This document shows positions 172 through 29,619 of a stretch of 36,406 bases of DNA, in pieces (the first letter of the stretch is position 1; each line of letters starts with the position of its first letter). The DNA comes from Christensenellales bacterium (GTDB lineage Bacteria > Bacillota > Clostridia > Christensenellales > SZUA-584). The notes below the pieces were generated by a model that saw only the letters and a list, made by a program, of their open reading frames with translations, was not told the DNA's origin and made no database searches. The translations under genes and the position numbers were made by a program. The stretch is taken from contig JBMNOT010000001.1 in the NCBI GenBank assembly GCA_050943225.1, forward strand, positions 1 to 36,406. The letters are read 5' to 3'.

Positions 172-184
172 GCATCCCCACAGC

Positions 185-1336
185 TTACATGGCGGGAACC
201 CTCCCGTTCAGCCACAGCCCGAGCAGCTTGCTCAGGTTGAACGAATAGGAATTCTCGCCGATATCATACGGGGCGGACAGCGCAACGGACTGTATTCTGT
301 CCTCGCCCAGCCAAAGATCGATACGCCCCACCTGCTGGCCTTTTTTCACAGGCGCAGTCAATGTCTCTTCGATATATACCCGCTTTTTAAGATTGGTGGC
401 TTCCTCCTGCGTCAGCGGAAAATACACGTCCTTTTCGGTGTACACAGGGAAGCTCTTCTCCATGCCATCCCTTACCGCTATTTCGCCGATTTTCTCGCCG
501 GCTTTTACGACAAGGCTGTTGTCGTAGTTTTCAAAGCCGTAGTCCATCAGCGCCATGCAATCGTTAAACATATCCGGAGCGCACAGTACCACGGATACCA
601 ATTGCATCCCTTCGCGCTCTGCAGCTGCCGCAAGACAGCGCCCCGCCTCTTTGGTAAACCCGGTCTTGATGCCGTTGCCGCCTTCGTAGTTCCACAGTAT
701 TTTGTTCTTGTTCTTCACCACGCGGTCCCATTCGTGGCCTTCCCAGGGCAGCGTCTTGTACTGTGTTTTCACGATCTCGCGGAACGTTTTATTCTGCATC
801 GCATAGGCGGACATCAGCGCCAGATCATAAGCCGTGGTGTAATGGTTATCTGCCGGCAGGCCGTTTGGATTGACAAAATGCGTGTTGTACGCGCCAATCT
901 CTCGCGCCTTGTCGTTCATCATGCCGACAAAAGTTTCCACATCGCCGCCTATATGCTCCGCGATGGCGATGGCTGCGTCGTTGCCGGATGCCAGCATCAG
1001 CCCGAACAGCAAGTCGGACAATGTCATGGTCTCGCCCGGCGACAGCCATATGGACGAGCCCTCCACGCCGCTCGCGTTGGCGCTGACCGTGACCATATCG
1101 CTGAGGTTGCCGTTCTCGATTGCCACCAGCGCTGTCATGATCTTGGTCGTGGAAGCCATCGGCATCTTCTCAAAAGCGTTCTTCTGGTACAGCACGCGCC
1201 CAGTTGACGCTTCCATTACCACGGCGGATTTGGCTGATACCGAAATTTCCACAGCCCTGACCGCACTCACATTATACGAAAATATGAGCGCAAAGGCCAG
1301 CACTGTTTGAGAAATTTTTCGTAATACCCGCCTCAA
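185..1336 (-). CDS. dacB: D-alanyl-D-alanine carboxypeptidase (serine type, PBP5/S11 family) with signal peptide
   Basis: All three penicillin-binding motifs are present: SxxK (ASTTKIMTA), SxN (ASGNDAA), KTG (IKTGFT). The N-terminus is hydrophobic. Synteny with scpAB matches B. subtilis dacB. Confidence 0.9.
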   Translation of the reverse strand: MRRVLRKISQTVLAFALIFSYNVSAVRAVEISVSAKSAVVMEASTGRVLYQKNAFEKMPMASTTKIMTALVAIENGNLSDMVTVSANASGVEGSSIWLSPGETMTLSDLLFGLMLASGNDAAIAIAEHIGGDVETFVGMMNDKAREIGAYNTHFVNPNGLPADNHYTTAYDLALMSAYAMQNKTFREIVKTQYKTLPWEGHEWDRVVKNKNKILWNYEGGNGIKTGFTKEAGRCLAAAAEREGMQLVSVVLCAPDMFNDCMALMDYGFENYDNSLVVKAGEKIGEIAVRDGMEKSFPVYTEKDVYFPLTQEEATNLKKRVYIEETLTAPVKKGQQVGRIDLWLGEDRIQSVALSAPYDIGENSYSFNLSKLLGLWLNGRVPAM

Positions 1337-4933: not shown

Positions 4934-7321
4934 TCAATCGCGCAGTTTAGCCCCAAATTGTGCGGCGGCAGCAGCCACAACGGCATCTCGTGCCGCGTTG
5001 GCCTCCTCGTCGAGCAGCGTGCGGTCTTTTGAGCGCAGCACGATGGTATATGCGAGGCTCTTTTTGCCCGCGCCCAGCTTATCCCCCGTATACACGTCGA
5101 ACAGCGCTGCGCTCTCGAAATAGGGCCCTGCGTTTTCGCGTATGCAGTCCAGCAGCGCGCCCGCGGGCACATCTGCGTCCACAATCAGCGCTATATCGCG
5201 CTCCACCTCCGGGAAACGCGGCAGCGGCTTATACTTGACTACATCGCAAGACGCAGCACTCAGCTTTTTGATATCGAGTTCGGCGATATACACGCGTTTG
5301 CCAATATCAAACGCCGCGCATACATCCGGGTGCACTTCGCCCAGTTCGCCCAGTTTTTCACCGCAGGCGTACACCGACGCTTTGCAGCCCGGGTGGTAAT
5401 ATTCCGACGCGTCGGGCATAAAGCGCGTGCTGCGGATGCCGAAAGCGTCCAGCAGGTTTTCCACAACGCCTTTGATCGAGAAGAAATCATGGTCTCCGCA
5501 CAGCGCGATGCAGACGTATTTGCGCTCGTCCGGCAGCGCGCCTTCCTCGCCGGTCGGCAGATAAACGCGGCCCGTCTCAAACAGGCGGATGTCCTTAGCC
5601 TTGCGGTTCAGGTTGCCGGCGACCACTTTCAGCATATCCGGCACCGGCGACGTGCGCATAAGCGCCTGCTCGTCGCCCAGCGGGTTGAGTATCCGCACGA
5701 AACGCAGCCGCCTGTCGTCCGGCGGCAGGTTCAGCTTGGCATAATCCGCCGCGGAAGCGAACGAATACGTGACACATTCATAGCATCCCAGGTGTATCAA
5801 CAGGCGGCGCACCTTATCAGTGCACGCTTCCTCCGCGGAATAGGCGCCGCGGCGAACCGCGCCTGTCATGGGCATGCTGGGAATGTTGTCATAACCGTAC
5901 ATGCGGGCAACTTCTTCCGCGATGTCGTCGCCCATGGAGATATCGCCGCGGAAGCTCGGTATGTCGCAGACCAGAGTGCCGTTCTCCAGCTTCGTGGGGA
6001 TGAACACACTATTCAGATGCTTTGCCATCTCTTCTGCGCTGAGCGACGTGCCCAGCTTGGTATTGATGCGCTTTGCAGACACGCGGACGGTTTTCGGCGC
6101 CAGGTCAGCAGAAACGATGTCGATTTCGCCCGGCACGATTTCGCCCGCGCCCAAAAGCTGCACCAAATGCAGCGCGCGGTCCATCGCCGTCTTGCAGCCC
6201 GCCGCGTCGATGCCTTTGGAAAAGCGCATCGCCGACTCGGTCTGCAGGCCCAGCGCGCGCGATGTGCGCCGAACGCTGCCCTGGCGGAATTTCGCCGACT
6301 CAAATATTACCGTAACTGTATCCGGCTTAATCTCGGAGTTTTCGCCGCCCATCACGCCGGCGATGCCGATCGGGCCCTCGCCGTCGCAGATCAGCAGCAT
6401 ATCCGGCGTGAGCGCGCGCTCCTTGCCGTCAAGCGTGACGATGGTTTCATCCTGACGGGCACGGCGCACAATGATGCGTCCCCCGCGGATATCCTTGTAA
6501 TCAAAAGCGTGCATCGGCTGGCCCATCTCCAGCATCACGAAGTTGGTGATGTCCACGATATTGTTGATGGAGCGCACTCCCGCCGACATTAGGCGGTCGC
6601 GCAGCCACTTGGGCGACGGTCCGATCTTGACGTTCTTCACCGCACGCGCAATATAGCGCTCACAGAGGTCAGCATCCTCCACCGTCACGTTCACATAATC
6701 GCTAATATGGCCGGTTCCTTCGGTAAAACTAGTATCGGGCATCCGGATGCCCTTGCCCAGCGCGGCGGCGCACTCGCGCGCCACGCCCAGCACCGATAGG
6801 CAATCCGGGCGGTTAGCGCCCACCTCGATATCGAACACCGTGTCATTAAGCCCCAGCACTTCGCGCAGCGGCGTGCCGGGCTTATCGTCTCCGTGCAGTA
6901 TCATGATGCCATCCACATCGGCGCCCGGGTAGTCGGAAGCCGTGAGGCCGAGCTCCGCGCCGGAGCACAGCATGCCATATGAATACACGCCGCGCAGCTT
7001 GCTCTTGCTGATTTTGAAACCGCCGGGCAGGTTTGCGCCGATCAGCGCCGTCGGCACCAGCGCGCCCTCAAATATGTTTTTCGCACCGCAGACGATCTGC
7101 AGCTCTTCCTCGCCGACATCCACCTGGCAGATGGAAAGCTTGTCGGCTTCGGGGTGCTTTTTGATGGAAAGTATGCGGCCAACAACAACTTTCTCCAAAG
7201 ACTCGCCCAGTACTTTCCAGCCGTCCACGGCAGTGCCCGTCATAATCAGGCGCTGCGCCAATTCCTCCGGCGCGAGGTCTATATCTACATAATCGCGCAT
7301 CCATTTATAAGGTGCTATCAT
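4934..7321 (-). CDS. pheT: Phenylalanine--tRNA ligase beta subunit
   Basis: 795 aa. It has the N-terminal tRNA-binding (EMAP-like) domain, B3/4 and B5 domains and a C-terminal anticodon-binding domain. It sits immediately downstream of pheS. Confidence 0.95.
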   Translation of the reverse strand: MIAPYKWMRDYVDIDLAPEELAQRLIMTGTAVDGWKVLGESLEKVVVGRILSIKKHPEADKLSICQVDVGEEELQIVCGAKNIFEGALVPTALIGANLPGGFKISKSKLRGVYSYGMLCSGAELGLTASDYPGADVDGIMILHGDDKPGTPLREVLGLNDTVFDIEVGANRPDCLSVLGVARECAAALGKGIRMPDTSFTEGTGHISDYVNVTVEDADLCERYIARAVKNVKIGPSPKWLRDRLMSAGVRSINNIVDITNFVMLEMGQPMHAFDYKDIRGGRIIVRRARQDETIVTLDGKERALTPDMLLICDGEGPIGIAGVMGGENSEIKPDTVTVIFESAKFRQGSVRRTSRALGLQTESAMRFSKGIDAAGCKTAMDRALHLVQLLGAGEIVPGEIDIVSADLAPKTVRVSAKRINTKLGTSLSAEEMAKHLNSVFIPTKLENGTLVCDIPSFRGDISMGDDIAEEVARMYGYDNIPSMPMTGAVRRGAYSAEEACTDKVRRLLIHLGCYECVTYSFASAADYAKLNLPPDDRRLRFVRILNPLGDEQALMRTSPVPDMLKVVAGNLNRKAKDIRLFETGRVYLPTGEEGALPDERKYVCIALCGDHDFFSIKGVVENLLDAFGIRSTRFMPDASEYYHPGCKASVYACGEKLGELGEVHPDVCAAFDIGKRVYIAELDIKKLSAASCDVVKYKPLPRFPEVERDIALIVDADVPAGALLDCIRENAGPYFESAALFDVYTGDKLGAGKKSLAYTIVLRSKDRTLLDEEANAARDAVVAAAAAQFGAKLRD

Positions 7322-14992: not shown

Positions 14993-17245
14993 TTAATCAT
15001 CTTTTTTTGGGAAAAACTCTGCCAAAGAAACCGTGGATTCCTGAACCGGAGGAATTTCATAGTGGAAATCTTCCTCTTGATCAAAATTGGCCTTCTTTGC
15101 AGGACGCTCTTCCACCGGCATCAGTGCACGGCGCGACAGGCTGATCTTGCGCTTGTCGGCATTGACTTCAAGCACCTTGGCTTCTATCTCATCGCCGATG
15201 CGCAGCTCATCCTCTACCTTGTCCAGCCGACGGTTGGACACCTGCGAGATGTGAATCAGGCCGTCCACTGTGGGTTCAAGCTGCACGAAAGCGCCGAACG
15301 GCACAATGCGCACGACCTTACCCCGGACGATATCGCCGGCATGGTACTTCTCGGGCACAAGATCCCACGGCTTGGGCAAGAGCTGCTTGTAGCCCAGCGC
15401 GATCCTCTTCTTGGACGGGTCGACGTTGAGTATCACGAGCTCCATCTCCTGGCCTTCCGATACCACGTCGGTCGGATGCTTCACGCGAGCCCACGCCATA
15501 TCCGAAATGTGCAGCAAGCCGTCCACGCCGCCGACATCCACAAAGGCGCCGAAATCCGTCAGGCGCTTGACAACGCCTTTCACGCGATCGCCCTTTTTTA
15601 AGCTCTCCCAAAGCGCTTTTTCCTTCTCTTTTTTCTCTTTAAGCAGCACCGTCTTGTGAGACGCCACCAGGCGCTCCTGTTTCTTGTCGGCATCGATCAG
15701 CGTGACTTCAAGCTCCTGGCCCTCAAACTGCTTTAAGTCTTCCACATATTTAAGCGACAACTGGGAAGCAGGAATAAAAGCGTTGTAGCCTTCGATCTTG
15801 GTGGTGACGCCGCCTTTCACGGCTTTTTTGACGACACATTTGTAAAGTATGTCTGTGCCGACATTTTGCTGAATCTTAAGCCAGTTCAGTTTCTTCTCGA
15901 CGCGCTTTCTGGAGAGAAGGATATTGCCTTCGCCGTCGTTGAGGTTGATAACTTCAGCCTCGATCTCGTCACCGATGTTGTAAACATCTTTGGGGTTAAT
16001 ATCGTGCAGCGACAATTCGCTTTTTGGAATTATGCCATCCGATTTATATCCAATATTAACATAAACGTCTTCATCAGTGATCTGAACGATATTGCCCTTG
16101 ACAATCTGTCCCTTTTTCAGTCGGACAACCTTCTCCAACCCTTCAAGAAACTCGTTTTTTTCGTCAGATTGTTTTGCAGGTGCGTTGTTCTCTACTTGCG
16201 CTGTTTCCATATCGTCAGTTGCTGTAGCTTCAGATACGACTTCGTTTGCAGTGTCTACCGTAGCTTCAACCGTTTCCTTCAACGTCGGGTCCAGAGCCAC
16301 ACCCGGTTCCTTATCGACAGGCACCTCTTCAGCAATCTGGGTAACTGCAGAGATGCCCGCCATGTCGCTGGCTGCGGTTTCCTGGCTCGGAATGTCCTCG
16401 CCTTCCTCCTGCAGCGCTTTTTCATTTTCCATCATGTAGTCAAAAACCTCCCTAATCATCGTATCCGGCGTTGAAGCACCGGAGACAATGCCTATTATAT
16501 CACCTAGATGCATTTTTTCAAGTAATAGTTCATTTTTGTGCTCAATATGATAGACATTTTTACAGCTTTTTCGACACAGTTCATAAAGCTTGCGCGTGTT
16601 GGAGCTTTGCCGGCCGCCCACAACAATGATAGTATCCACGATTTTTGCGATCTCAGCTGCCTCTTCCTGGCGCTGCTGCGTGGCCGAGCAGATGCTCATG
16701 AACGGAATGATACGTTCGACGCGGGATTCCAGCGCGGCAAGAAGCTGCTCCCATTTTTCCTGCGTAATCGTCGTCTGAGCCACCACCACAGCCTCATCCA
16801 TATGAGGCAGTGCGGCAACCTCTTCCTCGCTGTTCACCACAAACGCGCCGCTGCCCGCCCATCCGATAGTGCCGATCACTTCTGGGTGCCCTTTCTCGCC
16901 CACGATGATAACGCGCTGGCCTGCTTCGGCAGCAGCGCGCACGCGCTCATGAATACGTTTCACAAAAGGGCATGTCGCGTCAATATACGCGATACCGCGC
17001 GTTTTCAGCGCGTCGTATACCTCGGGCGAGGCGCCGTGGGAACGTATCACCACAGCAGCGCCTTCCGGCACGTCCTCCACGCGCTCGATACAGGCCACGC
17101 CGCGTTTCTCCAGCGAACGCACAACGTCGCGATTATGAATGAGCGGGCCCAGCGTTACGATGTTCTCCCCGATATGGGTTTCCACCGCATCCACGGCCCG
17201 CTTGACTCCAAAGCAAAAACCAGCATTTTTCGCAAGTATGACCAA
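14993..17245 (-). CDS. ispH: Bifunctional 4-hydroxy-3-methylbut-2-enyl diphosphate reductase (IspH) / ribosomal protein S1 fusion
   Basis: aa 1-~283 are IspH (GFCFGVKRAV, conserved Cys positions, SSNT). aa ~284-372 are an acidic, Thr/Glu-rich linker. aa ~373-735 hold four S1 repeats (for example GDRVKGVVKRLTDFGAFVDVGGVDGLLHISDMA). The start is TTG at 17245, with AAGGAG 7 nt upstream. Confidence 0.9.
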   Translation of the reverse strand: MVILAKNAGFCFGVKRAVDAVETHIGENIVTLGPLIHNRDVVRSLEKRGVACIERVEDVPEGAAVVIRSHGASPEVYDALKTRGIAYIDATCPFVKRIHERVRAAAEAGQRVIIVGEKGHPEVIGTIGWAGSGAFVVNSEEEVAALPHMDEAVVVAQTTITQEKWEQLLAALESRVERIIPFMSICSATQQRQEEAAEIAKIVDTIIVVGGRQSSNTRKLYELCRKSCKNVYHIEHKNELLLEKMHLGDIIGIVSGASTPDTMIREVFDYMMENEKALQEEGEDIPSQETAASDMAGISAVTQIAEEVPVDKEPGVALDPTLKETVEATVDTANEVVSEATATDDMETAQVENNAPAKQSDEKNEFLEGLEKVVRLKKGQIVKGNIVQITDEDVYVNIGYKSDGIIPKSELSLHDINPKDVYNIGDEIEAEVINLNDGEGNILLSRKRVEKKLNWLKIQQNVGTDILYKCVVKKAVKGGVTTKIEGYNAFIPASQLSLKYVEDLKQFEGQELEVTLIDADKKQERLVASHKTVLLKEKKEKEKALWESLKKGDRVKGVVKRLTDFGAFVDVGGVDGLLHISDMAWARVKHPTDVVSEGQEMELVILNVDPSKKRIALGYKQLLPKPWDLVPEKYHAGDIVRGKVVRIVPFGAFVQLEPTVDGLIHISQVSNRRLDKVEDELRIGDEIEAKVLEVNADKRKISLSRRALMPVEERPAKKANFDQEEDFHYEIPPVQESTVSLAEFFPKKDD

Positions 17246-24990: not shown

Positions 24991-25470
24991 TCAATACCCC
25001 AGATCCTTCAGCACGCGTGACAATACGGCAAGCCGCTCACCGATCAGTTCGTCGTTTTTTGACAAAACGTCCGCGAACAGACGAATATCCTCATCGATCA
25101 TGGGGTTGTCCGTACACACGGCTATTGTCATCGCGTCGCCCTGCAGGCCCACCCGGTCCAGCACCGGCTGAGCCGGGTCATATAGCTTTTCGTAGCGGTA
25201 CGCCTCGCGGAAATGCTTCAGCGCCCGGCAGACAAATATCGCCAAATCCAACACGCGGTGCAGCGGCAGCTCTTCCGACTGCCGGGACCATTTTTCTCCG
25301 GTATGACGCCATACCTTGGCGGAAACATCCAGCTTCCCGCGGTCGTTCCATTGCGCCAGCCCCACCGAGAGCCCCTTGGCGTCGGATTCATATGCAATCC
25401 GCCCGTCCACATTCGCGTAATCTTCGGCCACGATGACCGGTTTGTGTTTCAATGTTGTTGGAATCTTCAT
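24991..25470 (-). CDS. Hypothetical protein (conserved domain of unknown function)
   Basis: 159 aa with no TM segment or signal peptide. GGAG lies 7 nt upstream of ATG 25470. The distinctive segment is VWRHTGEKWSRQSEELPLHRVLDLAIF. I cannot assign a function. Confidence 0.6.
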   Translation of the reverse strand: MKIPTTLKHKPVIVAEDYANVDGRIAYESDAKGLSVGLAQWNDRGKLDVSAKVWRHTGEKWSRQSEELPLHRVLDLAIFVCRALKHFREAYRYEKLYDPAQPVLDRVGLQGDAMTIAVCTDNPMIDEDIRLFADVLSKNDELIGERLAVLSRVLKDLGY

Positions 25471-25485
25471 CCTTCACTCCATTAG

Positions 25486-25515
25486 TTGTTTATTAATTTA
25501 CTTATATCATAATAT
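25486..25515 (+). promoter_or_regulatory. Putative sigma-A promoter for the DUF1538-PII operon
   Basis: TTGTTT is followed at 16-18 nt by overlapping -10 candidates CATAAT/ATAATA/TAATAT. This would give a leader of about 110 nt. It overlaps the divergent promoter on the other strand. Confidence 0.3.
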
Positions 25516-25529
25516 CAGCCCGGCGTCAA
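25501..25529 (-). promoter_or_regulatory. Putative sigma-A promoter (extended -10) for the 159-aa / GIY-YIG-like pair
   Basis: The minus strand reads TTGACG-17 nt-TATAAG, and the last 3 nt of the spacer (TGA) give an extended -10. It ends about 30 nt upstream of ATG 25470. Confidence 0.45.
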
Positions 25530-25627
25530 GGCCTACGGTTGTCTGAGAGGTTTTACTGTGGTAAGATAAAAAAGGCTGACGTAACGGTCCTTGTTTCTTA
25601 TATCTTATTTTCTGCAGGGGGTTTGTA

Positions 25628-27112
25628 TTGAGTGCGCTGACACAAAAACTCAAGGAAGTATGCCTCACTGTTTTACCCATTGTGATCATCGTGCTGATAC
25701 TGCATTTTTTTGTCACGCCCGTTGATTCGATGGAGCTTTACCGTTTCCTTATCGGAGCGGCGCTGATCATCATAGGCATGTCCATTTTTCTGCTGGGCGT
25801 CGATCTGTGCATTACGCCACTGGGCAACCATTTCGGGCACGCGCTGACAAAGTCCAACAAATTGTGGGTTATCGTTGCGGGCGGTCTGCTGCTGGGTTTT
25901 CTGGTGTCAGTGGCGGAGCCGGACCTTCATATACTGGCCGTGCAGGTGGAAGAAGTGACTTCGGGACTAATTCCCCGGCTGACGCTTGTAGTCGTGGTTT
26001 CCCTCGGCATTGCGGCGCTGCTGGTCGTCGGTCTGGTGCGCATTTTATACAGCATACCGCTGTACTGGGTATTGACCGGGCTGTATCTGATAATCGGCAT
26101 ACTCTCTCTGCTGACCTCGCAGGGGTTCTTGGCCATTTCGTTCGACGCTTCCGGCGCCACCACCGGCGCACTCACCGTTCCGTTTATTCTTGCGCTGTCG
26201 TACAGCATCTCCATGATGAAAAAGGATAGCAAGGGCTCCGAGAAAGACAGTTTCGGCCTGGTGGGCGTTGCGTCCACCGGAGCCATACTCGCAGTGATGG
26301 TGATGAGCCTGGTATCCGGCTCCGGCGAGCTGAGCGGCCAATTAACCGATGAGGCGGCAGCTAACACGCATCTTCTGGCTCCTTTTGCAACCGCTTTCCC
26401 CCGTATTGCGGGAGAAAGCGCGCAGGCTTTAAGCCCGCTGCTCGTGATATTCCTGAGCTTTCAGATTTTCTCTTTTCGCCTGAAAAGGCGGCCCTTTATG
26501 AGAATCATCAAAGGCTTCATCTACGCTTTTCTGGGGCTTACGCTGTTTATGCTGGGCGTTAACGCCGGCTTTATGGAGTTAGGTGTATCCCTGGGTCACG
26601 CGGTTGCCGCAATCGGCTCCCCCGCGCTGCTGCTGTTTGTCGCGTTCGCGCTCGGAACGGTCACGATATTGGCGGAACCGGCAGTGCACGTGCTGACGCA
26701 CCAGATCGAAGAAGTGACCAGCGGTTCCGTCAGGCGGGGCTTCGTGCTGATCGCTTTAGCTGTGGGCGTAGGCCTGTCGCTGGTGCTCACCATCGTCCGG
26801 ATCATCGTACCTGAAGTGCAGCTATGGCATATACTGCTGCCGGGGTATATTATAGCTGTCGCGCTGATGTACTTTGGCCCCAAGCTCTTTGTCGGCATCG
26901 CGTTCGACTCGGGCGGCGTAGCCTCCGGGCCCATGACAGCGACGTTTATATTAGCGTTTACCCGGGGAGCGGCCAGTGCGACGGCCAGCGCCGACGTGCT
27001 GATCGACGGATTCGGCACCATTGCGCTGGTGGCGCTGACGCCGCTCATTACATTACAGATATTAGGCCTGATTTATCGGCGTAAAACAACCAAAGGAGAC
27101 CTAATCAAATGA
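25628..27112 (+). CDS. Polytopic membrane protein made of two tandem DUF1538-type repeats (function unknown)
   Basis: 494 aa with about 12 hydrophobic segments. The internal duplication is clear: VAEPDLHILAVQVEEVTSG / LAEPAVHVLTHQIEEVTSG and FDASGATTGALTVPFILAL / FDSGGVASGPMTATFILAF. The start is TTG, with AGGGGG 8 nt upstream. Confidence 0.8.
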   Translation: MSALTQKLKEVCLTVLPIVIIVLILHFFVTPVDSMELYRFLIGAALIIIGMSIFLLGVDLCITPLGNHFGHALTKSNKLWVIVAGGLLLGFLVSVAEPDLHILAVQVEEVTSGLIPRLTLVVVVSLGIAALLVVGLVRILYSIPLYWVLTGLYLIIGILSLLTSQGFLAISFDASGATTGALTVPFILALSYSISMMKKDSKGSEKDSFGLVGVASTGAILAVMVMSLVSGSGELSGQLTDEAAANTHLLAPFATAFPRIAGESAQALSPLLVIFLSFQIFSFRLKRRPFMRIIKGFIYAFLGLTLFMLGVNAGFMELGVSLGHAVAAIGSPALLLFVAFALGTVTILAEPAVHVLTHQIEEVTSGSVRRGFVLIALAVGVGLSLVLTIVRIIVPEVQLWHILLPGYIIAVALMYFGPKLFVGIAFDSGGVASGPMTATFILAFTRGAASATASADVLIDGFGTIALVALTPLITLQILGLIYRRKTTKGDLIK

Positions 27113-27756
27113 ACACCTCAGGGTATTCGGCGCTCGTTGTGATCACTCCCGGTCATGCAAGCCGGGTCATCCATGCCGCAAAAAAACATGGGATCCGCGG
27201 AGCCACGGTCACATTGGGCAGGGGTACAGCCCACAGCCGTCTGCTCAACTTTTTGGAGCTTGGCGATACCCAAAGAGAGATCGTCATCATGGTAACCGGC
27301 ACGCTGACGGCCACAATGGCAATGAAAGCGCTGTGCGATGAGCTCAGGCTCGAGAAAAAAGGCCATGGCATCGCTATCATCATTCCGCTGGATAACGTGT
27401 TCGGACTCAGCTATATGCCCAGCGGCGAACCAATTGCACAGGAGGAAGAAAGCTTTATGCACAAGGCGATATTTACCATAGTGGAAAGAGGCCAGGCCGA
27501 AGCGGTGATGGAAGCGGCCACCGCAGCGGGCGCGCGCGGCGGCACCATCATCAACGCCCGCGGTTCCGGAATCCACGAAACGAGCAAGCTGTTCGCTATG
27601 GAAATCGAGCCGGAAAAAGAAATCGTGATGATCATCGCGGAAAAGGCTCAAGCGGATGCCATCACCAGCGCCATTCGGGAATCGATGCGCATCGACGAAC
27701 CGGGACGCGGCATCATATTCACCGCTCCGGTCAGCCATGCGTGCGGGCTGTATTAA
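27109..27756 (+). CDS. Tandem P-II (GlnB-like) domain protein
   Basis: 215 aa comprising two homologous ~95-aa beta-alpha-beta repeats. Repeat 1 is YSALVVITPGHASRVIHAAKKHGIRGATVTLGRG...GIAIIIPLDNVFGL. Repeat 2 is HKAIFTIVERGQAEAVMEAATAAGARGGTIINARGSG...GIIFTAPVSHACGL. The ATG overlaps the DUF1538 stop (ATGA). Confidence 0.75.
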   Translation: MNTSGYSALVVITPGHASRVIHAAKKHGIRGATVTLGRGTAHSRLLNFLELGDTQREIVIMVTGTLTATMAMKALCDELRLEKKGHGIAIIIPLDNVFGLSYMPSGEPIAQEEESFMHKAIFTIVERGQAEAVMEAATAAGARGGTIINARGSGIHETSKLFAMEIEPEKEIVMIIAEKAQADAITSAIRESMRIDEPGRGIIFTAPVSHACGLY

Positions 27757-28973
27757 CCGGTCCGCGCAGGCAGGCCGGCGTCGCGCAGCGTCCGGCTAAG
27801 CAGCAGGAATATGCTCTGCACAAGCATCAGTGCGCCGGTGACAAGCAGCAGCCATTCGATGGCAATGGAGTCGGATACCGGGCCGAACAACAGCATGCCG
27901 ATCGGCATCACGGAGCTGGAAATCATTCCGTATACGCCGAATACGCGACCCATCATATCCTCCTCCACTTTTTCCTGCAGCATTACCATGGCCGGCGTGC
28001 TGAACACCGGTATCGCCAGGCCGGTCAGCGCCATGAATAACAGATACAGCCAGAAAACGGGTACCACGCCCAGCGCAACTGTGCAAATGCTGATGGCAAA
28101 GGCTGCCGCAGTCATGGTATAAGCCCGGTTTTTAAAACCGCCCCATGCGGCGATCAGCACGCCGCCCAGCACCATTCCCCCGGAAAAGGCAATCTCAATC
28201 GCCGTGAGCCGCCATACCTGATCACCAAAACTGCGCGCAACCTGCAGTGGCGTCAGAAACGCGGCCGGCGACACCAGAAAGAAAAACACCGCGGCATATA
28301 TGAAAAACAGCAGGACAAAACGGTGCTGCCGTATATACCCAAGTCCTGTCCTAAAATCCTCGAAATATCCCGTTTCCTGCTTTTGCAGCGCTTTATGATG
28401 CGGCGGCACGTGCACGAAAAGAAGCATCACTGCAATCGCCAAAGCCGCTGTCACTACATCGATGAAGAATATCACTTCAATGGCCGCAAAAGACATAAGT
28501 ACGCCGCTGACCATCGGCGATACCAGCGTGATAGCGGACTGCAGGCTGTTATTTATTCCGTTGACGCGCGTCAGCTTCTCCTCCGGCACGATCTGCGGTA
28601 AAAATGCGCTCACCGCCGGCGTCTGTATGCCGGTGCCCAGCGCCCGCACGGCGGACACGGCAAACAGCAGCCAGATGTCCCGGTATCCCAGCATGAATAT
28701 CGCAGCCAGGGCTAATGTGGCAACAGCAATGCCTGCATCGGCTATCACTATGAGATGCTTCCGGTTGTATCTATCGGCCCAAACCCCGGCGAACGGAGAC
28801 AGAAAAAACGTAGGCAGTATGCCGCAGATGATAGATACCATCATCATCACGCCAGACTGCGTATTCAGCGTAATATACCACATGATGGCATACTGCACCA
28901 GCGACGAGCCAAAAAGGGATATCGACTGGCTGAACAGGAATCGCGTGGTGTTCTTTTTCCAGTCTGTCTTCAT
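27753..28973 (-). CDS. MFS transporter (DHA3 / macrolide-efflux-like subfamily)
   Basis: About 12 TM segments. The N-terminus FSQSISLFGSSLVQYAIMWYI...FAGVWADRYNRK is typical of this subfamily. Start set to ATG 28973. The longer track ORF would run into the predicted promoter. Confidence 0.8.
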   Translation of the reverse strand: MKTDWKKNTTRFLFSQSISLFGSSLVQYAIMWYITLNTQSGVMMMVSIICGILPTFFLSPFAGVWADRYNRKHLIVIADAGIAVATLALAAIFMLGYRDIWLLFAVSAVRALGTGIQTPAVSAFLPQIVPEEKLTRVNGINNSLQSAITLVSPMVSGVLMSFAAIEVIFFIDVVTAALAIAVMLLFVHVPPHHKALQKQETGYFEDFRTGLGYIRQHRFVLLFFIYAAVFFFLVSPAAFLTPLQVARSFGDQVWRLTAIEIAFSGGMVLGGVLIAAWGGFKNRAYTMTAAAFAISICTVALGVVPVFWLYLLFMALTGLAIPVFSTPAMVMLQEKVEEDMMGRVFGVYGMISSSVMPIGMLLFGPVSDSIAIEWLLLVTGALMLVQSIFLLLSRTLRDAGLPARTG

Positions 28974-29014
28974 CAGTGTTCCCCGTTTCTTAGTTTGTGC
29001 GCGCGCGTATTGCA

Positions 29015-29044
29015 AATTTATCATTTTTGAGCTTTGCCCGTCAA
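29015..29044 (-). promoter_or_regulatory. Putative sigma-A promoter (extended -10) for the MFS gene
   Basis: The minus strand reads TTGACG-18 nt-TAAATT, and the last 3 nt of the spacer (TGA) give an extended -10. Confidence 0.4.
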
Positions 29045-29238: not shown

Positions 29239-29619
29239 CTATTTATTCCTGAGCAAATCACGGATCTCGGCCAGAAGCAGCTCTTCTCTGGACGGTTCGG
29301 GCTCTTTCGGCTCTTCGACAGGCGTTTCTTTTTTCCTCCGGAGCCTGTTGATCAGCTTGATGATCAGGAAGATGCACAGCGCGATAATGAAGAAATCAAC
29401 GATGCTCTGTATAAACGCGCCGTAGGCGATCGTCGCCTCCCCCACACTGACGCTGAGCTGCGAGAAGTCAAGCCCGCCGATGATAATTCCAATGATCGGC
29501 ATGATGATGTCGTCCACCAGCGACGAGACAATCTTGCCGAAAGTGCCGCCGATGATAACGCCGACAGCCAGATCGATCACATTACCCCGAGAAATAAATT
29601 CTTTAAACTCCTTAATCAC
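29239..29619 (-). CDS. mscL: Large-conductance mechanosensitive channel
   Basis: 126 aa. [41 protein letters not shown] is the canonical MscL N-terminus. Confidence 0.95.

Follow-up and report, generated by a model that had tools for sequence, protein, structure and literature searches.

We analyzed a 36,406-nt stretch of DNA from a Christensenellales bacterium (contig JBMNOT010000001.1), the whole of which is referred to here as the window, and concentrated on two adjoining forward-strand genes. The upstream gene encodes a polytopic DUF1538 membrane protein of 494 amino acids and the downstream gene a soluble PII-family protein of 215 amino acids. A first-pass annotation, made before any database search, had called both open reading frames (ORFs) at the coordinates given in Table 1, with an ATGA overlap, and had read the pair as a dedicated transporter with its own PII regulator. 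The ORF list and the raw sequence agree with these calls: ATG occupies positions 27109-27111 and TGA positions 27110-27112, so that start and stop codon overlap. In 76 related loci, the two genes likewise overlapped or were no more than 9 nt apart. DUF1538 homologues can be aligned from residue 1 of the window protein, which supports the TTG start of the upstream gene.

The membrane protein consists of two DUF1538 repeats

The 494-residue protein matched the Pfam DUF1538 model (PF07556) with 428.8 bits against a gathering score of 22.6 (E = 3.5e-129), in two stretches that cover both halves. When the halves were aligned with each other, they were 27% identical over 240 residues (E = 9e-22). 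The family assignment and the two homologous halves that had been suspected from the sequence are thus both confirmed, as is the presence of two motifs in each half. The first motif reads SVAEPDLHILAVQVEEVTSG (residues 94-113) in one half and ILAEPAVHVLTHQIEEVTSG (347-366) in the other; the second reads FDASGATTGALTVPFILA (172-189) and FDSGGVASGPMTATFILA (426-443). In a second class of systems, referred to as split, the two halves are encoded by separate genes. The best split-system match of the window N-half was the product of gene 1 and that of the C-half the product of gene 2, which makes the window protein the colinear fusion product of an ancestral heterodimer.

Charge bias across 71 sequences predicts an inverted repeat of 7+7 transmembrane (TM) helices with both termini inside the cell. 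In repeat 1, the charge counts were +0.6 for the N-terminus, -1.0 for loop 1-2, +1.4 for loop 2-3, and -3.1 for the AEP...EEVTSG helix, which has hardly any lysine or arginine (K/R), while loop 6-7 contains about four K/R. The linker between the repeats scored -1.9. In repeat 2, loop 1'-2' scored +4.9, the AEP helix has 2.5 K/R, loop 6'-7' scored -2.8, and the C-terminus +3.4. In a confident AlphaFold2 model of the protein (predicted local distance difference test score, pLDDT, 82.6; predicted template modelling score, pTM, 0.81), helices are interrupted where the AEP and FDxxG motifs lie. Residues at least 90% conserved in both the fused and the split class are, in window numbering, E97/E350, Q106/Q359, R138/R391, and D173/D427, together with D99 and T178/T179. 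The polar conserved set is pseudo-symmetric between the repeats and is located at the helix breaks or within helices.

A sequence search of the PDB with the DUF1538 protein returned nothing at E ≤ 1. With the model as query, nothing that Foldseek retrieved from the PDB reached E ≤ 0.001; its top hit was a generic helical one (E = 0.018, TM-score 0.17). Judged from the model, the DUF1538 fold is one with no detectable solved relative, and there is consequently no mechanistic template to borrow.

The partner is a tandem of two PII domains with a short acidic T-loop

The complete 215-residue protein matched the Pfam P-II model (PF00543) with 57.1 bits against a gathering score of 25 (E = 2.6e-15), a significant match that came from residues 119-211 in the C-half. 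The N-half alone did not reach this gathering score (17.4 bits, E = 0.0057) and aligned only weakly with the C-half (E = 7e-6); it matched the PDB entry 9p1x_H, a NifI-type PII protein of a methanogen nitrogenase supercomplex, at E = 0.029. An AlphaFold2 model built on a 72-sequence alignment (pLDDT 83.6, pTM 0.81) contained two beta-alpha-beta-beta-alpha-beta domains (residues 6-93 and 118-212), in both of which a T-loop-like insert is modelled with low confidence (about residues 40-54 and 152-168). With this model, Foldseek retrieved GlnK and GlnB structures at E of about 1e-6 and probability 1.00, each match covering one domain. Modelling thus indicates that the protein is a tandem of two PII-fold domains of which the N-terminal one is divergent. 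The two PII/GlnB-like repeats of the first-pass annotation hold up by Pfam in the C-half and by model and fold search in both halves, the N-half being below threshold by sequence, and with them its view that both partners are duplicated. A different assignment, PF26733, which is precomputed on one homologue (P0023), was not reproduced in our Pfam search.

Within the tandem-PII family, mean conservation is 0.75 in the C-half and 0.63 in the N-half. The short acidic T-loop of the C-half, ARGSGIHETSKLFAMEIEPEKE (about residues 150-171), is 93% conserved compared with about 50% identity in the family overall, which is the pattern expected of an interaction surface. The window C-half and the single-domain partners of split systems have the signature GRGxGxxE...IEPEKEIV in common. 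Relative to GlnB, the T-loop of DUF1538-associated PII proteins is six residues shorter and has no tyrosine at the position of Tyr51; the Tyr51 (or Ser49) modification site is missing. The glycine/threonine frame on the adenosine side and the equivalent of K58 (K170) are kept, whereas the effector residues R38, Q39, and K90 are changed to I/V, H/N, and I/L, respectively, and R101 and R103 are absent; the canonical residues for triphosphate binding (R38, K90, R101, and R103) are thus among those lost.

A profile of 33 single-domain partners matched NifI first in the PDB (E = 1.9e-6), followed by GlnB and GlnK; down to E = 10, it matched no entry described as SbtB, PstA/DarA, or CPII. From these matches, the DUF1538-associated PII proteins form a distinct clade of PII proper (PF00543) with a non-canonical effector site. 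Their ligand would most likely be an adenine nucleotide.

DUF1538 and PII genes are linked in two very different subclasses

Both proteins are members of large families: homology searches gave 2544 scored tandem-PII matches and at least 7996 fused-DUF1538 matches, mostly in Bacillota. For the fused class, a fused-DUF1538 alignment was run against a single genome of each species; 520 loci were confirmed and 80 of them retained, and the one most similar to the window was that of a Christensenellaceae metagenome-assembled genome (MAG; 92% identity). A tandem-PII gene lay directly downstream of the DUF1538 gene and on the same strand in 80/80 loci, three of them cut by contig ends, so the pairing seen in the window is not due to chance. 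When all adjoining ORFs at these loci were clustered, the next most common cluster after tandem PII was present in 14/80, and no other conserved neighbour of the pair emerged. The same pair is found on annotated RefSeq plasmids of Vescimonas and Paraclostridium.

The order DUF1538-DUF1538 followed by a single-domain P-II gene is present on annotated RefSeq plasmids of Chelativorans and Methylocystis and on three more split-type contigs. A metagenome scan with a split-type alignment yielded 80 loci, 64 of which were testable in that they extend at least 350 nt beyond the second DUF1538 gene. A single-domain PII gene was directly downstream in 62 of these 64 and directly upstream in one (L102). 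The sole testable locus with no visible PII gene (L122) begins inside the first DUF1538 gene, so that a PII gene on its upstream side, the position occupied in L102 and L153, would be unseen. Taking both classes together, PII was adjacent to DUF1538 in 143/144 testable loci (80/80 fused and 63/64 split), compared with a chance expectation of about 1 in 1000, assuming 1-3 PII genes among a few thousand genes. Across 166 loci of the two classes, no third gene was conserved with the pair, and no nitrogen or carbon assimilation genes recurred near the modules. These observations support the conclusion that the two genes constitute a dedicated, translationally coupled module conserved across two very different subclasses.

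Some loci depart from the common plan by additional PII genes. One (L056) has an extra stand-alone, C-half-like single-domain PII gene (5551-5928) upstream of the fused DUF1538 gene besides the tandem gene downstream, and two consecutive tandem-PII genes are present in Clostridium lamae (L063, 7483-9004) and in L066. In a further locus (L080, JBLNDC010000146.1), on a contig whose label is that of a Bacteroidota MAG, the operon of fused DUF1538 and tandem PII is of the Bacillota type and 58% identical to the window; this operon could be the result of horizontal transfer or of a binning error.

Natural fusions and triple-PII chains

A profile search with the tandem PII protein returned 479 clusters (50% identity) at E ≤ 1e-30, and among the homologues were proteins in which transporter and regulator are joined. 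P0413 (709 amino acids; L171, 311-2440) and P0380 (417 amino acids, cut by a contig end; L173, 24-1277) both have the architecture DUF1538x2-PIIx2 in one reading frame. The two are 59% identical over 419 residues, junction included, and come from independent ENA and JGI metagenome samples; the fusion is thus a fixed natural architecture rather than a sequencing error. In both, the PII part begins about 17 residues after the last TM helix, at the C-terminus that charge bias predicts to be cytoplasmic. Such covalent fusions are Rosetta-stone evidence that argues for joint physical action, and a physical partnership of transporter and PII would be the natural reading. A third candidate, P0025 (338 amino acids), was rejected as a functional fusion: with residues 1-146 of DUF1538 continuing without a break into mid-domain sequence of the first PII repeat, it resembles the product of an internal deletion or of a chimeric assembly.

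Six further proteins of 325-357 amino acids (P0361, P0410, P0429, P0475, P0485, and P0496) apparently have three PII domains in the order N-like, C-like, C-like, a reading based on length, on repeated motifs, and, in most of them, on two matched stretches, with Pfam resolving one or two domains in each. All three triple-PII genes that could be placed (L172, L174, and L175) directly follow a fused DUF1538 gene. In one of these loci (L172, 4001-7248, actinomycete-like), the genes after the triple-PII gene encode an MgtE_N+CBS protein and a DUF1003 protein.

The module therefore occurs in four forms: a split pair with a one-domain PII protein, a fused transporter with a two-domain PII protein as in the window, a fused transporter with a three-domain PII protein, and a single chain. 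Among the loci sampled, we observed neither a fused transporter with a lone single-domain PII protein nor a split transporter with a multi-domain one. One-, two-, and three-domain chains are all compatible with trimeric rings: one ring would take three one-domain chains or a single three-domain chain, and two rings would take three two-domain chains. The existence of partners with one, two, and three domains gives a sharper outline to the first-pass suggestion that a tandem chain would force an unusual assembly.

Features and surroundings of the operon

The coordinates of the gene pair, its initiation and coupling signals, and its domains are collected in Table 1.

Table 1. Mapped features of the DUF1538-PII operon in the window (SD, Shine-Dalgarno).
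Feature	Residues	Position in window	Strand	Details
Fused DUF1538 membrane protein gene		25628-27112	+	494 aa, TTG start; ORF list and raw sequence
Tandem PII-family protein gene		27109-27756	+	215 aa, ATG start; Pfam P-II, AlphaFold2 model, Foldseek to GlnK/GlnB
DUF1538 gene translation start		25616-25630	+	SD-like AGGGGG 25616-21, 6-nt spacer, TTG 25628-30
Coupling junction		27093-27112	+	SD AAGGAGA 27093-99 within the DUF1538 gene end; ATGA overlap 27109-12
Repeat 1	1-238	25628-26341	+	Orthologous to split-operon gene 1
Repeat 1 features	94-113, 138, 172-181			AEPDLH...EEVTSG 94-113 (predicted outward-facing), R138, FDASGATTGA 172-181
Repeat 1 cytoplasmic loop (predicted)	198-210			Hydrophilic, KKDSKGSEKDSFG
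Repeat 2	about 251-494	26378-27109	+	Orthologous to split-operon gene 2; inverted orientation
Repeat 2 features	284-288, 349-366, 391, 426-435			RLKRR cytoplasmic loop 284-288, AEPAVH...EEVTSG 349-366 (predicted cytoplasm-facing), R391, FDSGGVASGP 426-435, basic C-terminus
N-terminal PII domain	6-93	27124-27387	+	Divergent; T-loop-like segment about 40-54; mean conservation 0.63
C-terminal PII domain	118-212	27460-27744	+	Pfam E = 2.6e-15; ancestral signature of DUF1538-associated PII

TTG is the homologous first codon of the fused DUF1538 gene in 64/69 related loci, from Bacillaceae to Clostridia, behind a conserved initiation region, AAAGGAAG...TAT|TTGAATGTA. This frequency is well above the usual use of TTG and suggests selection for a weak or regulated initiation relative to the ATG-started PII gene. 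At the other end of the operon, the stop codons of the PII gene and of a convergent MFS gene (27753-29024, minus strand) overlap in TTAA (27753-27756), which leaves no room for an intergenic terminator. Promoter and terminator scans remained at background level. In a search for a riboswitch or leader that might give a clue to the substrate, Rfam had no match in the whole window, none at permissive thresholds in 25300-25800, and none upstream of the operon in 11 diverse related loci. The window contains no tRNA.

The operon lies in ordinary chromosomal surroundings that include pheST, polA, an IspH-S1 fusion gene, a Liv-type ABC transporter, and cell-wall hydrolases, as well as genes for the MFS transporter, MscL, and a CBS-ACT protein. 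Divergent from it is the gene of a DUF6530 protein (24991-25470, minus strand; full-length match, E = 1.2e-84), which had no conserved adjacency to the module in other loci. The gene of the mechanosensitive channel MscL (29239-29619, minus strand) is located 1.5 kb downstream of the operon and was near the module in 7/80 fused-type loci, a possible if weak link to osmotic or ion stress. Unconnected to the DUF1538-PII pair, a 750-amino-acid protein (14993-17245, minus strand) combines IspH/LytB with four S1 RNA-binding domains.

A proposed model of a PII-gated antiporter

We propose that the two proteins form one functional unit in which a cation/proton antiporter of the DUF1538/UmpAB family is gated from the cytoplasm by a dedicated, ligand-sensing PII protein, and we assign this reading a probability of roughly 0.55. 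The antiporter chain would consist of the fused subunits of the split system, arranged as two 7-TM repeats in opposite orientation, with an ion pathway formed by Glu97/Glu350 of the AEP motif, Gln106/Gln359, Arg138/Arg391, and Asp173/Asp427. The PII protein, made by coupled translation, would dock on the cytoplasmic face of the transporter, with the short, acidic T-loop of its C-terminal, ancestral domain as the likely contact or plug. Whether the T-loop blocks or releases ion flux would then depend on the occupancy of a ligand site between domains, the probable ligand being an adenine nucleotide. The N-terminal domain, a duplicate that has diverged, would contribute a second input or a scaffold.

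We infer the substrate from UmpAB and from gene context. The first-pass annotation had stated that DUF1538 has no experimentally defined substrate, which is outdated: antiport by UmpAB was reported in 2017 (PMC5484666) and NCBIfam models of UmpA and UmpB exist. Its picture of a dedicated transporter with a PII module is largely supported by translational coupling, conserved linkage, and covalent fusions. UmpAB of Halomonas zhaodongensis is a split DUF1538 pair reported to act as a pH-dependent Na+(Li+,K+)/H+ antiporter; it restored tolerance of Na+, Li+, and alkaline pH to E. coli KNabc and showed antiport in everted vesicles (PMC5484666). The clone contained a truncated ORF1, ORF2, umpA, and umpB, and no PII gene (PMC5484666), so that the basic activity of UmpAB is independent of PII. 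In published work, UmpAB homologues mark saltwater cable bacteria, and DUF1538 is among the features that predict growth pH or pH adaptation.

Gene context points in the same general direction. Near the split DUF1538-DUF1538-PII module, a tandem Usp gene on the same strand was found in 16/86 loci (e.g. L089, L096, L097, L103-L106, L110, and L121). Other neighbours in these 86 split-class loci were a type-II P-type cation ATPase (7), a K+-channel-like gene (4), and an NhaP-type exchanger with TrkA_C (3). Among the hosts of the fused type are many members of moderately halophilic Bacillaceae genera, such as Gracilibacillus, Halobacillus, Virgibacillus, and Thalassobacillus. The conserved acidic residues and arginines predicted to lie within the membrane would fit cations better than anions.

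Several points weigh against this picture. The window protein scored 159.4 bits against the NCBIfam UmpA equivalog model (NF041627; cut-off 490) and 144.5 bits against that for UmpB (NF041628; cut-off 500) and is thus not an equivalog; split proteins of the Methylocystis type are likewise far below these cut-offs. Scores so far below the cut-offs make the transfer of the UmpAB substrate weak, a family-level lead and not a matter of orthology. UmpAB itself rests on one heterologous complementation study, and in our judgement side activities can show up in screens of this kind. The associations with neighbouring genes hold for a minority of loci, some of which are redundant. The loss of conservation at R38, K90, R101, and R103, together with a T-loop six residues shorter, may mean that the PII partner binds a ligand other than ATP/ADP or 2-oxoglutarate. 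A two-domain chain is at odds with a simple trimer. Finally, a lysine-rich loop (residues 198-206), considered as a docking site for PII in systems with an N-like PII domain, is not universal: it varies from one to four K/R across such systems and is absent from the split class.

The same low equivalog scores speak for an alternative that we consider unlikely, namely that the partnership is as proposed and the substrate is not Na+, K+, or H+ but, for example, bicarbonate, an ammonium-like species, Mg2+, or an organic acid, antiport by UmpAB being a side activity. Also in its favour, the known PII-controlled transporters carry nitrogen or carbon species (10.1101/2023.08.10.552651), one triple-PII locus is followed by an MgtE_N+CBS gene, and the fold has no solved relative to constrain its chemistry. 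Against such substrates are the sole experimental datum for the family, which is cation/H+ antiport (PMC5484666), the universally conserved acidic and arginine residues predicted in the membrane, the recurrence of cation ATPases, Na/H exchangers, and a K+-channel-like gene as neighbours, and the lack of recurring nitrogen or carbon assimilation genes in the loci surveyed.

A different role for PII is also conceivable. It could be an obligatory or activating subunit required for assembly, stability, or turnover, or a one-way valve against back-flux, rather than an inhibitory plug. A reversible inhibitor explains strict translational coupling and covalent fusion no better than a permanent subunit does, and a valve model has been proposed for SbtB/SbtA and for B. 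subtilis GlnK/AmtB (10.1101/2023.08.10.552651). We nevertheless regard this as rather improbable given that UmpAB catalyzed antiport in E. coli from a clone with no PII gene (PMC5484666) and that a highly conserved flexible T-loop is typical of switchable contacts. Least probable of all, to the point that we give it little weight, is that the DUF1538 protein is mainly a sensor or anchor that sequesters PII at the membrane, with soluble proteins elsewhere as the true targets. Sequestration of GlnK by AmtB at the membrane is an established output of the GlnK-AmtB system, and extra PII paralogues are present in some loci (L056 and L063). However, no third gene is conserved with the pair in the 166 loci, a covalent fusion to the transporter would stop release to other targets, and one member of the family does transport ions (UmpAB, PMC5484666).

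Significance of the proposed PII-antiporter partnership

Few signalling proteins are as widespread as the PII proteins, and not many of their transporter targets are understood. In the open-access and bioRxiv literature, we found no paper that links DUF1538 or UmpAB to PII and no description of multi-domain PII chains of the window or triple type. The gene pair as such is common and already annotated in RefSeq as "DUF1538 domain-containing protein" and "P-II family nitrogen regulator"; novelty would lie in a partnership at the level of function and in the variants of it. Specialists would probably not have expected transporter and PII in one covalent chain, PII proteins with three domains, or a connection with cation transport.

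If a PII-gated antiporter is indeed what the module encodes, the PII regulon would gain an entire transporter family, whose homologues number in the thousands across Bacillota, Proteobacteria, and actinomycete-like bacteria, and PII signalling would be connected to cation and pH homeostasis besides nitrogen and carbon supply. The DUF1538/UmpAB family, which is used as a salinity marker, for instance in cable bacteria, would gain a testable regulatory mechanism. The module also offers structural targets in a transporter fold with no solved relative and in two- and three-domain PII chains. The natural DUF1538-PII fusions are potential ready-made constructs for structural work and could ease cryo-electron microscopy of the complex.

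Comparison with known systems

UmpAB and the window protein share PF07556 and an organization in two cooperating homologous domains of about 7 TM helices each. They differ in that UmpAB consists of two separate subunits whereas the window protein is one chain, and in that the UmpAB paper mentions no PII partner (PMC5484666) whereas the window system has a PII gene.

Among proteins of solved structure, the DUF1538-associated PII clade is closest in sequence to NifI (PDB 9p1x; E = 1.9e-6), which has a similarly short T-loop. Unlike the window protein, the archaeal nitrogenase regulators NifI1 and NifI2 have a soluble enzyme as their target and are separate chains rather than a tandem. As two different PII proteins that act on one target, they are a precedent for cooperation between non-identical PII domains.

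GlnK-AmtB resembles the window system in that a PII-family gene shares an operon with a membrane transporter, in the PII fold, and in a flexible T-loop as the probable contact; GlnK1 and the AmtB-GlnK complex of E. coli (2ns1) are among the best Foldseek matches of the window PII protein. The transporters, however, are unrelated in family and fold, and GlnK has one domain per chain whereas the window PII protein has two. The window T-loop is six residues shorter, acidic, and devoid of Tyr51, and R38, K90, R101, and R103 are not conserved. In SbtB-SbtA, a dedicated PII-type regulator is likewise co-transcribed with a Na+-linked secondary transporter, and the valve-plug concept would be applicable to the window system. 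The PII protein of the window type, in contrast, belongs to PII proper (PF00543), and SbtA is not a DUF1538 protein.

By analogy, the proposed plug or valve of DUF1538-PII would parallel both GlnK-AmtB and the valve-plug model of SbtB-SbtA. We tentatively extend this, at somewhat less than even odds, to the suggestion that, next to Amt-GlnK and SbtA-SbtB, PII has a third transporter partner of ancient and widespread standing in DUF1538. In this system, a PII protein with a short acidic T-loop and a non-canonical effector site would gate a cation/proton antiporter of 7+7 inverted-repeat fold, and multi-domain chains and fusions, for example as single-chain pseudo-trimers or double rings, would represent an assembly logic new among PII systems.

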